From NCBI GenBank assembly GCA_964486045.1, contig CAZALK010000007.1, forward strand, positions 151,717-215,716: DNA of 64,000 nt, read 5' to 3'. The DNA comes from an uncultured archaeon. Its GTDB lineage: Archaea; Asgardarchaeota; Lokiarchaeia; Sigyniarchaeales; SOKP01. The notes under the pieces are model-generated. The model made no database searches, had not been told where the DNA came from, and was given only the letters and a program-made list of their open reading frames with translations. The translations under genes and the position numbers were made by a program. This document shows, in pieces, positions 9,963 to 23,282 of the stretch; position 1 is the first letter of the stretch, and every line of letters begins with the position of its first letter.

Positions 9963-12900
9963 ATGAAAAATACATCAAGATTAAAGTTTAAAATAAAGGC
10001 ATTAACGTTACTTTCAATAATATTAATCACTAGCCTCTTTGGGATGTTTTTAATGAATTTTATTAATATTCCTTCTAGCTTAGAGGGGAGTACGATAAAA
10101 AACGATCAAGATAATGAATTATTTGAAAAGAATAAACCAATCGCAAGTCTTGGTACTCATAGTTGGTGGGATAAATCTTTTCATTCAAGACGAGTAATAA
10201 ATATAACAAATCCTAATTCAGAGACATTTTATAATTACGGAGTAAGTATATCTTTTAATTATACCACGGACGTTTTGAATGGAGATTTAAGAGCAGATCT
10301 CGGAGATCTAAGAATCATTGAATACGATTCTGGGGGAGATGCTTTTCAAAGAAAATACTATTTTCAAAAAGATTACCCTCAAAGTGATATAGTTTCTGTA
10401 TGGTTTGAAACAAATATTACTGTCAGTGATGGTGATTCCCAATTAGACACTTATTTATATTTTGGTAATGATGCTGTTGGAATCAATACAACTTATTTTA
10501 TGAATGAAACAACTTCAGATTCGGTTGCTAATAATTTTGGATGGATCAGAAATGGAAATTTTGAACAGGATCCTGGAGTAGGTGGTCACGCAATTGATGG
10601 GGTTTTTGGGTGGTATTTTGCAGATGATGTACCTGATGACGTCAATGGTGCCTATACTCCAAATACACCAGATCCGGATTATTATCAACACAATTTAAGT
10701 ACAATGGCTTCAAATCAAGAACTAAAGAATGAAGGAGCTTATACATTTAAATTTGGTGATATTAGTCATGATGTTTCTAGTGGTTCAACTGGAAAAGATA
10801 TCGCTGGAACTTTATTTTCCGCTCCTTTTGTTGTTCCTACCGTTTCGGGAGGATCAAACAAAATTTACATAAATGCTTGGCGTAATTTTAGAACCTTTGA
10901 TGATCAGAATTCTAAAAAAATAGGAGTTTATGTAAGAATTGCTCAATATTACGATGATACTAATGTCAATTCACATGGAGCATATGGTGGTTCGGTATAT
11001 ACGCAGGGTTATGTAGAATTTTGGGATTCTTTTATAAGTGAGTCCTCGTTAAAAACGTGGGTAGAAGATAATTTTGGTATATTGGCAGATAAAAATACGG
11101 CAGCAGGCCAATTGACAGGAGATCTTTTAATTGATGTATCTGATTATCAAGGTGAGGCTATCTTCTTAGAATTTGGGATGCTTCACTATGATATTGAGGC
11201 GGCTAATAAATTTAATGCATTTGCTCAAGTCGATAATGTAACCTTTACTTATAATTTCGATGTATCCTTAGATTCTGAAGCTGAACGAAGAAAATCAGAT
11301 GTTACTATTATAGTTAGAGATATTGATGGAAGAATTGTCCCTAATGCAGAAGTTTCCCTAATAAATAGTTCTAAGCCAGTTGCAGAACAGATACAGTATG
11401 GACCGTTAAACACTTCAGAGGAGGAGGGATCAATAACCTTTACAGGGGTTACTTACTCAACATATAATTATACAGTAAATTATACGATACCTTCTACAGG
11501 GTATGAATTTGTTGTGTTTAATAGTAGCTCTTATCCGTTGGTTTATTTTAACATAACAGAATCTCAGCAGACTTTTACCATTTATATAGATATATGGACC
11601 ATCGATTTTGAAATTGTTGATTATGATAAGGAATCATTAAATTATGCATATATCGCAGTTTATAACGAGACCAAAATGGGGGTAAATTTAGAAAATATAA
11701 CGCTTAATAGTGATGGAAAAGGTACGTTCCGTTGGAGGAATCAATCTAGTTATTATTATGAGGTATATTATGATAATATTGATTATAATCTTAACCCTAC
11801 AGCATTGAATGAATCATATGTAAAGAGAGCTACTTATGATCAAGCAAATGATAAGTATAGAGATCATTCGTTTTTGATAAATGAAACTAATGCAGATCCA
11901 GCAGGGAACCCAACTTTTGCCGTAAATGAACTCATTTACACCAATGGTTCGCGAACAGAATTGGGAAATAAAAAAATACTGGGTGCAGAGGTAAATATTA
12001 CATTTCAAACTTCAGATGCTTATCTTACTTCGGTTTCAATTTATTATATAGATAAAAACAATTATACCGATGACAATTATTTGATTTACTATAATAATAG
12101 CTATGATGCTGATTTTTTAAATAATCGTATTAATATGGATATGAGATTCCCCCAAATTACACCCTCTAGTTTAATAACAAATAATTATGAAGTTTACGGT
12201 TTGAAAATTGTCGCTATTGGAGCAAATACAACTAATTTTAATGGAGTTTTTAATATAACATTAAATGAAACGACCAACATCTATAATGTTACAGATTTGA
12301 GTAAGTTAAATATTAGAGTTGTTAATGAAGCTGGCGGCGGTTTAGTTGGTGGTATAGTAACAGTAAATAGTTCAATAGGGATTCAAAACTTTCAAGTCAA
12401 CTTGACAGCAGGATATTCTGCAGTTGATTACTTAAACGGATATGCATATGGAACAACAAATAACTTATTGCCCCTTTGGTATTTAAGAGGATATGAATAT
12501 AACATCTCATTATATTATGCAGGGGAATATAGACAACTAAATGTAACTGTCCCCGATCCTTTTGATCCTCAATATCCTGGTATAGATTGGAGAGATGAGT
12601 TTAATTACACGCTTAATGGAAAATCAAATTTTACAATAGAGCCCAATTTAGGTGGAGTTGACCCTAATTGGTTTCAACTACAATTTAATAACATTGAATT
12701 AGTTGATGTGGTAACATGGGGTAACAATTTTAGCGTTCGGATAAATTTTACGCTTACTGATGATAATTGGGCAAGTTCAGTACCAGTGACCCTTCCAGCA
12801 ACTGTAACTTGTTATGTTAAGAGTACTGGACCCTCAAGCACTATTGTATCAGTAAAAAGTATGGTGTTTGAAGGCAATGGAATGTTTAATACTACATTTA

Positions 12901-22172: not shown

Positions 22173-23282
22173 ATGCCGATTGGACTTGTCATTATGAAAT
22201 GGGATGATAGGGCTGGTACGGAAATATTGGCTAAGTATCCAGAGGAAGTTGTACTAACTGAAAAAACGTTGATGCAAGTTTATAGTACTCATGAATATAG
22301 TGGTGAATCAGGGATGATTAGTTTAATGGTTGGGTCTTTGAACATCGCGTCTTACTATACTGGTCCAGAGAAAGGCTTCTATATTCTCCTCCTTTTAAAT
22401 TTAGATGATGATCCAGATTCGTTTGAGGAAGGATTAATAGACATTTCTCGGATCATATTAGGAAGCATAGAAGATGATGCCTATCTTCAAATGATCCCAT
22501 CACTATTTCAAAGATTATCAGTATATCCTACACTCAGTACTGAACAACAACTTGCAATTACTTATCAGGATGAGATAAAACGTATGATAATCAAACGTTT
22601 AAGAGATGAAGGAGTAGTTTCAAAATCTGAACTGATGATTTGGTTAAAAGATAGGTACAAACAAGGTTTTATTGACGTAGAAGGAGTTTTGATGGAACTT
22701 ATCAAACGTGAAATTGTCAAAGAAGCGTCTGTTAAGGGTATGCCTTCAGAATTGATCTTTCTAATAAAAGATGTAGTACTTATGCGCGTTCCGCCAGTAA
22801 AAATATTGAAAGACCCATCAGATCGAGGTTTACCAACTCAATTAGTAGAAAACTATAAAACCGATGCTCGGAATTTTTTTAAGAATTATCGACCTTCAGA
22901 AGGAGATAATCTAAGAGTTTTAGATATTCTTACCAACCCACAGGTTTATGAAACTTTACGACTTTTAAGATCTGCCGTAGTTACGAAGAAAGATCTGGCG
23001 AAACTTAGAAAGAAAGGTGTTGAAGATCTAGATGATGTATTAAAGATGCTCTGGGATACTCAAATGATCCAAGTTTTCCAAGATGATAAAGGAAATGAAT
23101 ACTTTGCTCTGCTTTCAGATTTCCATTTAGATCTAATATTTCCGAAATATTTAATGAATGTTATTAAAACAGTATATAACCAGAAGTCTAAAGCAGATCA
23201 GGTTTTAATTGAATACTTGACAGTTCTCGAAAATTCTTACACTAATTTAAAAGCTGCATCGCAAGTAAAAGCTGAGGATTAA
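22173..23282 (+). CDS. Longin/uDENN-like cytoplasmic protein, paralog of 15134..16240
   Basis: Colinear with the paralog (LNIASYYTG, KEASVKGMPSELIFLI, LRKKGV, KGNEY). ATG directly follows the upstream TAA. Confidence 0.65.
   Translation: MPIGLVIMKWDDRAGTEILAKYPEEVVLTEKTLMQVYSTHEYSGESGMISLMVGSLNIASYYTGPEKGFYILLLLNLDDDPDSFEEGLIDISRIILGSIEDDAYLQMIPSLFQRLSVYPTLSTEQQLAITYQDEIKRMIIKRLRDEGVVSKSELMIWLKDRYKQGFIDVEGVLMELIKREIVKEASVKGMPSELIFLIKDVVLMRVPPVKILKDPSDRGLPTQLVENYKTDARNFFKNYRPSEGDNLRVLDILTNPQVYETLRLLRSAVVTKKDLAKLRKKGVEDLDDVLKMLWDTQMIQVFQDDKGNEYFALLSDFHLDLIFPKYLMNVIKTVYNQKSKADQVLIEYLTVLENSYTNLKAASQVKAED

Follow-up and report, generated by a model that had tools for sequence, protein, structure and literature searches.

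By combining genome surveys with structure and complex prediction, we describe a locus of an uncultured Lokiarchaeia archaeon in which two pairs of genes, each encoding a large single-pass surface glycoprotein (R) and a ~369-aa adaptor (AD), stand either side of a gene for an Arf-like small GTPase. The anatomy of the locus, the co-occurrence of its parts across Asgard genomes and the predicted folds lead us to favour, with about even confidence, a non-catalytic docking unit in which AD would bind the R tail on one side and, depending on nucleotide state, the GTPase on the other.

Two R–AD gene pairs and their surface proteins

The analysed stretch, here called the window, comprises 64,000 nt of contig CAZALK010000007.1 (assembly GCA_964486045.1); all coordinates are window positions.

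9963..15134, plus strand: R1, single-pass surface glycoprotein, 1723 aa
14322..14567, plus strand: R1 aa 1454-1535, spanning the juxtamembrane motif, the TM helix and a basic helical tail that is conserved; a putative adaptor-docking element
15134..16240, plus strand: A1, adaptor of 368 aa; a longin (aa 1-120) followed by two winged helices and C-terminal helices
16330..17358, minus strand: Arf-like small GTPase, 342 aa, with intact G1-G4 motifs and a helical C-terminal extension
17832..22172, plus strand: R2, single-pass surface glycoprotein, 1446 aa
21783..22052, plus strand: R2 aa 1318-1407, spanning the juxtamembrane motif, the TM helix and the conserved tail
22173..23282, plus strand: A2, 369-aa adaptor; longin and two winged helices

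An ORF check found all the reading frames of the initial annotation where it had placed them, and both junctions have the form it described, a TAATG with a 1-base overlap between R1 and A1 and a TAA-ATG between R2 and A2, where A2 follows directly after the R2 stop. Shine-Dalgarno-like GGAGG/GAGGTG sequences lie just upstream at R–AD junctions. A broken or frameshifted single gene at the junction is ruled out, the stop being kept in more than 100 loci. The two adaptors are colinear, as had been noted, at 63% identity; this divergence, together with separate orthologs in many genomes and separate clades, rules out an assembly duplication. The GTPase gene does lie between the pairs, but on the minus strand, convergent with A1 and divergent from R2, and is therefore not co-transcribed with them in the window locus. 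A promoter and terminator scan of the locus, of a kind ill-suited to archaea, stayed at chance level. Existing annotation of the module proteins is hypothetical or domain-only throughout.

R1 runs from an N-terminal hydrophobic segment through a DUF2341-like domain, a variable domain and Ig/CarboxypepD-like stalk repeats to a TM helix at ~aa 1462 and the tail, with a charged low-complexity extension beyond the conserved part; R2 comprises a DUF2341-like domain, a LamG/ConA-like domain (aa 221-414), stalk repeats, a TM helix at ~aa 1325 and the conserved tail. The ectodomains had been called divergent, and they are only 33% identical over ~950 aa, with one non-homologous domain of ~250 aa (LamG in R2, without family assignment in R1). 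They are not unrelated, however: this domain is their sole non-homologous portion, homology extends over those ~950 aa, and the N-terminal DUF2341-like part is shared. Searches run on the R1 variable domain (aa ~190-435) returned no match. N-glycosylation sequons number 48 in R1 and 39 in R2; shuffled sequences reach at most 38 and 30. Ectodomains are also swapped while tail and AD are retained, as at loci L031 and L098, where the ADs are 87-89% identical and the ectodomains 22-30%. The R proteins are best explained as large N-glycosylated surface proteins whose ectodomains can be exchanged (LamG, FG-GAP propeller, Ig-like stalks), and their domain content suggests that they may act as adhesins or lectins.

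The adaptor fold

The partner proteins had been described as longin/DENN-like adaptors, of which the first half stands. In the AD model, aa 1-116 follow the longin order of elements at a pLDDT of 91.9, and the domain matches many known longins at Z 9-12.7. A DENN fold, conversely, does not follow: residues 123-322 form two winged helices instead, the DENN module (an alpha/beta cDENN and a helical dDENN after the longin) is absent from the AD models, and DENND1A and DENND10 align to AD over aa 1-120 only. A longin with tandem C-terminal winged helices is what defines NPRL2 and NPRL3 (PMC3747258), and AD has this architecture. The top Foldseek matches are GATOR1 chains, and the best structural match is 8fw5_B (Z 12.7, rmsd 2.5, 119 aligned), with 8adl_S at Z 11.5. 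At the level of sequence, no NPR2/NPR3 match was among the Pfam families listed for AD (25 families, 76 members), a profile search of PDB sequences returned no GATOR1 chain, A1 and A2 matched no family in Pfam or NCBIfam, and A2 matched no PDB sequence. ESM Atlas matches of AD are nameless Asgard clusters only. AD may be one of the catalogued longin asCOGs.

For up to 17 of the 76 members, the second winged helix hits HTH families of the ArsR/TrmB/MarR type, and the winged helices of NPRL2 have been suggested in the literature to bind DNA. Both observations would suit a transcription regulator that the R tail keeps at the membrane until a signal frees it. We consider this role very improbable, since the winged-helix domains carry a neutral to acidic net charge of -3/-3 and +1/-4, and AD is covalently fused to a membrane protein in many genomes. 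The winged helices of ESCRT-II and GATOR1, moreover, serve as protein scaffolds.

A W-D-x3-G motif is conserved on the beta1-beta2 hairpin of the AD longin. In the GAP longins NPRL2, FLCN, SMCR8 and C9orf72, strand 2 is preceded by a marker GP motif (PMC12290439); in AD the G is mostly kept, the P occurs only in the copies of families f7 and f26 and in some paralogs, and the window copies read G-T (A2) and S-T (A1). The beta4-beta5 loop holds no conserved Arg that could serve as a family-wide arginine finger of the kind that NPRL2, FLCN and SMCR8 have close to the GP hairpin.

Genomic and predicted ties to the surface-protein tail and to an Arf-like GTPase

The TM and cytoplasmic motifs of the initial annotation, EIFPG.P.FYF...AYR..Q..RIP...KK.RK.K..IK.KK.I and KL.GD.W..LG.S....LGI, are found as quoted there, and a gene-neighbourhood survey confirms that the pairing of R with AD is conserved across Asgard, also as a natural fusion. 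In Loki loci, all 120 of 120 tail-bearing genes precede an AD gene or are fused to it: AD is directly next in 112, 2 more were missed purely by start-codon calls, and 6 are fused, with gaps of -1 or 0 for most. The source genome itself holds one such fusion (C11, 2307 aa), and others occur in relatives; because the fusions form one clade, we regard them as a single event. Mini-R genes of 143-147 aa, which have no ectodomain, keep both tail and AD. An HMM built solely from non-Loki tails recovers exactly the 7 AD-linked surface proteins among the 4426 ORFs of the genome. In a genome set chosen by us, the tail is present in 40 of 41 AD-positive Asgard genomes, families with unlinked genes included, and in 0 of 9 AD-negative ones, which represent only four families.

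Docking was read indirectly, through the pTM and pLDDT of a model of the natural fusion, in which the contact site is not visible: the tail, beyond a disordered linker, has a pLDDT of 85-96, and the pTM is 0.81, against 0.83 for AD alone. Foldseek with the fused model gained nothing further, and paired coevolution of tail and AD (mean-field DCA on 147 rows, effective ~50) returned noise, within AD as well. From genomics and modelling together we infer that the ~60-aa basic two-helix tail very probably binds AD, probably via the winged-helix/C-terminal half.

The window GTPase is assigned to the Arf-like branch of the Ras superfamily by its G1-G4 motifs and its closest similarity to Arf/Arl; it retains the catalytic Gln and has no TM helix. 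Its clade carries a domain of ~120-130 aa ahead of the G domain, not an N-terminal amphipathic helix, and in the window GTPase these N-terminal ~120 aa are a probable longin. Clat_adaptor_s matches 2 of 52 members (E 4e-4), and comparing the N-terminal part of the GTPase with the AD longin by profile gives a colinear but weak match (probability 4%). In the ESM Atlas, the AD model aligns over 155 aa with a Loki Arf cluster of 347 aa.

The proposed connection of AD with a small GTPase holds up genomically, being with one clade, and in complex prediction. AD-adjacent GTPases of six families form a single clade (SH-aLRT 99), to which 7 of the 71 small GTPases of the source genome belong. Two other candidate clients were rejected: a Rag-like GTPase at 7447-8379 is separated from the module by eS25 and a methyltransferase, shows synteny only in its own family and is not part of the AD-linked clade, and the roadblock-Rab-like GTPases that flank the C11 fusion fall in a different clade and were seen beside AD in fusion loci only. 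The predicted complex of A1 with the window GTPase scores 0.63, and the best of 3 controls, which were unrelated proteins and not other small GTPases, 0.01; the mark it passes is reached by 58 of 80 solved pairs and 2 of 110 mismatched pairs. Contacts agree between runs by at least 97%, with partner pLDDT of at least 85. This pass may reflect likeness, because the PDB holds longin-GTPase complexes. In the model, the longin top face lies against the GTPase switch regions, and D11, M34 and Y37 of AD, which lie in this interface, are kept in 47-51 of 52 sequences. The top face is the GTPase-binding side of longins, where SRX binds as a monomer (PMC3747258). As modelled, the top face of the AD longin likely binds the switch face of an Arf-like GTPase that is dedicated to it and probably carries a longin of its own.

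If only the tail–AD pair were physical, with AD serving for instance as an inner anchor or folding partner, the GTPase could be no more than a conserved neighbour or a gene under shared regulation. R–AD coupling is indeed near absolute in Loki loci, many of which hold R and AD without the GTPase; in the window the GTPase gene is on the opposite strand, and it is encoded elsewhere in f3, f21 and MK-D1 (Promethearchaeum syntrophicum), in the last of these away from the R–AD pairs. We nevertheless think this unlikely, since the same GTPase clade adjoins AD in 10 families, often 8-41 bp away and co-oriented, longin-only AD paralogs likewise sit beside it, and the predicted complex passes.

The initial annotation had proposed a receptor-GEF/GAP-GTPase unit, of which the longin, the conserved pairing and the link to one GTPase clade with predicted binding stand, and the DENN fold does not. 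Under such signalling, an outside ligand would alter or cluster the tail, and AD alone, an A1/A2 dimer or a dimer of AD with the GTPase longin would catalyse exchange or hydrolysis. The NPRL2/NPRL3 architecture and top structure matches would fit, as would the retained catalytic Gln, the GP of the f7/f26 ADs and the W-D motif, which sits where C9orf72 has W33-D34, required for its Arf1 GAP activity. Arg65, in the beta4-beta5 loop of most ADs of the A1 subtype (the subtype found beside the GTPase), would fit too; it is confined to that subtype, however, occurring in just 24 of 52 GTPase-adjacent ADs, and is missing from the confidently placed residues listed for the modelled interface. No longin–longin contact between A1 and the GTPase is among the contacts listed for the model, AD has no DENN module, and R genes without an ectodomain speak against an outside-in relay. 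Signalling of this kind seems improbable to us.

In the docking unit that we favour, the R tail would hold cytoplasmic AD beneath the membrane, while the beta1-beta2 hairpin with its W-D-x3-G motif and helix alpha1 would contact switch I, interswitch and switch II of the GTPase. By analogy with SRX on SR-beta, AD would most likely be a platform that reads the nucleotide state without catalysis, bringing a GTPase that has no membrane anchor of its own to the sites of surface proteins. Alternatively, the GTPase cycle may govern the clustering or placement of R proteins. A bolder and doubtful extension makes the module a minimal unit for cargo adaptation or adhesion signalling that predates eukaryotes and was ancestral to most Asgard classes. 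In it, the GTP-loaded switch would engage the longin adaptor that holds the tails of interchangeable adhesins, and would so govern where these adhesins cluster or are delivered (protrusions, contact sites, vesicles), and partner contact would feed back on the GTPase; if true, this would amount to an archaeal version of AP/COPI or integrin logic.

Significance and comparison with known systems

Asgard archaea are the closest prokaryotic relatives of eukaryotes, and Asgard genomes encode small GTPases and longin proteins by the dozen without known partners. The module supplies a concrete candidate set, a matched membrane anchor, longin platform and GTPase clade named across most sampled Asgard families. 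Matching Asgard GTPases to regulators by genome layout is difficult, according to Tran et al. 2024 (PMC10933270). The module connects a eukaryote-type switch with the surface of cells that have no internal organelles, which suggests a role for NPRL2-like longins before lysosomes and coats. It is testable now, because the cultured P. syntrophicum encodes four R–AD pairs (AD = DSAG12_03674, 02912, 02897 and 03167) and the GTPase.

Liu et al. (10.1101/2020.10.19.343400) report an Asgard operon of roadblock, Rab-like GTPase and DENN as well as NPRL2-like proteins, and Tran et al. the longin-GTPase fusions of MK-D1; in the accessible portions of both, no longin protein is connected to surface-protein tails. 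Literature searches for the surface-protein/longin/GTPase combination or for MK-D1 accessions, to which subscription papers were mostly closed, found no description.

NPRL2/NPRL3 (Npr2/Npr3) of GATOR1/SEACIT, a GAP for RagA/Gtr1, share with AD the order of longin and tandem winged helices, but identity is ~8-12% and the match is convincing for the longin only. Their partner is Rag, whereas that predicted for AD is Arf-like; AD lacks the family-wide arginine finger and, unlike them, has a single-pass surface protein encoded alongside it or fused to it. In C9orf72-SMCR8-WDR41, an Arf GAP, and FLCN-FNIP, the likeness lies in the W-D-x3-G(P) hairpin on the GTPase-binding face, which resembles W33-D34/GP of C9orf72, and in an Arf-type client, predicted for AD; AD has winged helices in place of a DENN module and shows no sign of a longin heterodimer with a catalytic partner. 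Another parallel to the proposed AD–GTPase pair is SRX on SR-beta, where a lone longin engages an Arf-related GTPase by its top face, without catalysis, in a membrane-tethered complex (PMC3747258). In contrast to the SRP receptor, the tail of a surface protein would tether AD, the GTPase lacks a TM helix, and the module has neither an NG domain nor a link to SRP. In AP and COPI, longin-containing adaptors (sigma/mu) bridge cargo cytoplasmic tails and an Arf-type GTPase (Arf1-GTP). The logic proposed for the AD module is the same, and AP/COP longins are among the fold matches of AD; unlike these cargo adaptors, however, AD is one polypeptide without adaptin solenoids or a known coat, and its putative ligand is a folded ~60-aa tail, not a short linear motif.

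The locus and its neighbours

All five genes named in the initial annotation were recovered as ORFs at the same coordinates: two pairs of a large single-pass surface glycoprotein (R1, R2) and an adaptor of the ~369-aa AD family (A1, A2), with an Arf-like small GTPase gene between them.

9963-15134, + strand: R1, ORF of 1723 aa
15134-16240, + strand: A1, ORF of 368 aa
16330-17358, - strand: GTPase, ORF of 342 aa
17832-22172, + strand: R2, ORF of 1446 aa
22173-23282, + strand: A2, ORF of 369 aa

The tight junctions described there also hold, R1 and A1 sharing one base and R2 and A2 directly abutting, and the adaptors are indeed colinear (63% identity, end to end). 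The proposed conservation of the TM segment and ~60-aa cytoplasmic tail stands, as R1 and R2 are closest there; the proposed divergence of the ectodomains is true of a single ~250-aa domain (LamG in R2, no family assigned in R1), the proteins being homologous over most of their length, with 33% identity across ~950 aa. Their 48 and 39 sequons exceed all of 500 shuffles (maxima 38 and 30). R1 continues past the tail into a ~190-aa cytoplasmic extension (14600-15134) that contains 2.7 copies of a 29-aa (87-bp) K/E/A-rich repeat as well as E/P-rich repeats of 5/10 aa; long extensions also occur at loci L094/L154 and L157 and in most non-Loki R proteins.

Upstream, beyond eS25 and a methyltransferase, a Rag-like GTPase with a C-terminal extension (7447-8379; Gtr1_RagA, E 5e-23) is syntenic in the module's own family only. 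Directly downstream of A2 in most own-family loci lies a RuBisCO large-subunit family gene (23384-24703) of two alternating subtypes (~85% and ~54% identity). A 396-aa protein (24845-26035), conserved and syntenic in the family, begins with a zinc-ribbon-like Cys-pair segment and has no match in Pfam.

The R–AD–GTPase module is real, conserved and apparently undescribed. The genome is one of Lokiarchaeia, its close homologs carrying the name Promethearchaeota. The cultured Promethearchaeum syntrophicum MK-D1 has four R–AD pairs (AD: QEE17836.1, QEE17080.1, QEE17065.1, QEE17334.1), one R protein carrying LamG (QEE17837.1) and another FG-GAP repeats, with the GTPase elsewhere on the chromosome; this makes the R–AD module testable there.

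Fold of the adaptor

An AlphaFold2 model of AD on an alignment of 76 sequences (pLDDT 91.9, pTM 0.83) comprises a longin (1-116), a winged helix (123-206), a helical linker, a second winged helix (243-322) and two C-terminal helices. The initial annotation had suggested a longin/DENN-like fold, to be checked by structure search; the N-terminal longin is borne out, with matches up to Z 12.7, the best being GATOR1/SEA subunits (top NPRL2 8fw5_B, rmsd 2.5, 119 aligned), and many other longins scoring Z 9-11.5. The DENN part falls away: because DENN proteins align to AD over the longin alone, the modelled adaptor lies outside that family and has the NPRL2/3 architecture of a longin and two winged helices. 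Sequence and profile comparison detected no similarity to NPR2/NPR3. We consider it very improbable that AD is a transcription factor held at the membrane, since its winged helices lack a basic character and fusions of AD to the membrane protein are frequent.

AD was detected in 114 of 151 Asgard genomes and in 113 of 121 within the class. Proteins P0180 (1020 aa) and P0190 (1046 aa) combine it in one polypeptide with a SIR2_2-like domain plus TPR repeats, a defence-like architecture. Behind divergent paralogs on contigs C23 and C17 of this genome lie genes for proteins of 647 aa (L170:11723-13666) and 730 aa (L171:2463-4655) that resemble each other at the C-terminus, the former starting, as judged by eye, with a TrmB-like-looking segment.

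Coupling of tail and adaptor

R adjoins AD in 11 families, so that the gene pairing, for which an Asgard-wide survey had been proposed, is conserved. The Loki loci hold 112 tail genes with AD directly after, 2 more missed through start calls only and 6 fused. Since these loci had been collected around AD genes, AD-independent tests were added. A profile built from 21 non-Loki tails only, run against the 4426 ORFs of this genome, recovered precisely the seven surface proteins whose genes adjoin an AD-family gene or are fused with one (E<=8e-4, the next match having 0.058). Among 50 genomes of our choosing, tails occur in 40 of 41 AD-positive and none of 9 AD-negative ones, including Freyarchaeia and further families whose tail and AD genes lie apart; since the AD-negatives represent four families only, this co-occurrence is suggestive and no statistic.

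The same genome encodes, on contig C11, a single ORF of 2307 aa that runs from an ectodomain through TM and tail into AD. Such fusions also occur as tandem arrays in relatives, and all form one clade, hence one event. In a model of the natural fusion (pTM 0.81), the two-helix tail has pLDDT 85-96 and the linker below 50; because a pTM of ~0.70 would be expected, by our rough estimate, with the tail unplaced, the model appears to put the tail on AD, a placement read from pTM and not from contacts. The winged-helix half is the putative docking site; longin-only AD paralogs adjoin GTPases, not tails, and the C17-type paralog, whose hairpin has diverged, remains with tails. In mini-R genes (143-147 aa) nothing is left of the ectodomain, yet tail and AD are kept. 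Ectodomains are also exchanged: orthologs whose AD is 87-89% identical to A2 have stalks just 22-30% identical, and at L053 the values are 81% and 61-75%.

Several variants were seen besides. An 1822-aa surface protein (L171:11007-16475) has five hydrophobic segments and the tail motif twice (aa ~770, ~1690). A 141-aa ORF (L189:4182-4607), ~5 kb from an AD–GTPase pair, has the motif without a TM helix and is a possible soluble tail mimic; similar short matches occur in other genomes of family f7. Extra ADs with no preceding tail gene stand ahead of R–AD pairs at L152:7720-8832, L052:4352-5455, L091:5689-6792 and L096:3550-4653, those of L152, L052 and L096 forming one clade. Five tandem fused R–AD genes of ~2660 aa each lie at L185 (G177:C9:430361-464784), and in families f3, f13 and f21 (L116, L117, L118, L119, L120) a 137-161-aa ORF separates AD from a large surface gene.

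The GTPase and comparison with known systems

Motifs G1-G4 are all intact in the GTPase, whose nearest relatives are Arf/Arl proteins; by its N-terminus it falls outside Arf proper, with a ~120-aa N-terminal domain, on weak matches probably a longin, in place of the amphipathic helix. AD-adjacent GTPases from six families form one clade in a quick tree (SH-aLRT 99) that accounts for just 7 of the 71 small GTPases encoded here. The type adjoins AD in 10 families, later loci included; R, AD and GTPase share one locus in 5, Atabeyarchaeia among them, and nine AD-negative genomes yielded no full-length form. The fused R–AD gene of contig C11 lies between two roadblock-Rab-like GTPases (L169:3028-13303), and the upstream roadblock-Rab-like GTPase of L108 is a 651-aa ORF matching longin-Arf-like and roadblock-GTPase profiles, apparently a double-GTPase fusion.

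Predicted with GTP and Mg, the A1–GTPase complex scores 0.63 (best control 0.01), above a mark that 58 of 80 solved pairs passed, as did 2 of 110 mismatched ones, though these numbers apply only roughly here; at least 97% of contacts agree between runs, with partner pLDDT of at least 85. The predicted interface joins AD 11-15 and 30-42 to GTPase 122-124, 155-161, 170, 172 and 180-190, namely switch I, interswitch and switch II; the GTPase N-terminal domain, residue 76 excepted, is absent from the confident contacts. The pass may reflect likeness to already solved complexes, and the controls were unrelated proteins rather than other small GTPases. We give a low probability to a real tail–AD pair whose GTPase connection is only genomic.

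Comparably unlikely, in our judgement, is the receptor-controlled GEF/GAP of the initial annotation: no Arg is conserved family-wide at the AD position expected for a GAP-type finger, Arg65 is confined to the A1 subtype and absent from the confident contacts, and AD falls outside the GAP longins with an arginine finger. At roughly even odds, we favour a basic tail that holds the acidic AD under a variable surface protein, the AD longin being a non-catalytic platform for a dedicated Arf-like GTPase. The tail (charge +9 to +12) would anchor the adaptor, whose longin would grip the switch face without catalysis, thereby coupling the GTPase cycle to the location of the surface protein.

Longin platforms, NPRL2-like longins and Asgard longin–GTPase fusions are already known (10.1101/2020.10.19.343400, PMC10933270, PMC12290439); the literature searched, which covered few subscription journals, held no paper tying such parts to surface-protein tails. 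The W10-D11-x3-G15 motif of the AD beta1-beta2 hairpin resembles the WD/GP site by which C9orf72 holds Arf1. In known complexes, of which monomeric SRX with SR-beta is one (PMC3747258), it is the top face of the longin that contacts the GTPase, and the same face is used in the predicted A1–GTPase complex. The module is a variation on the longin-platform/small-GTPase theme, its individual parts being of known kinds.
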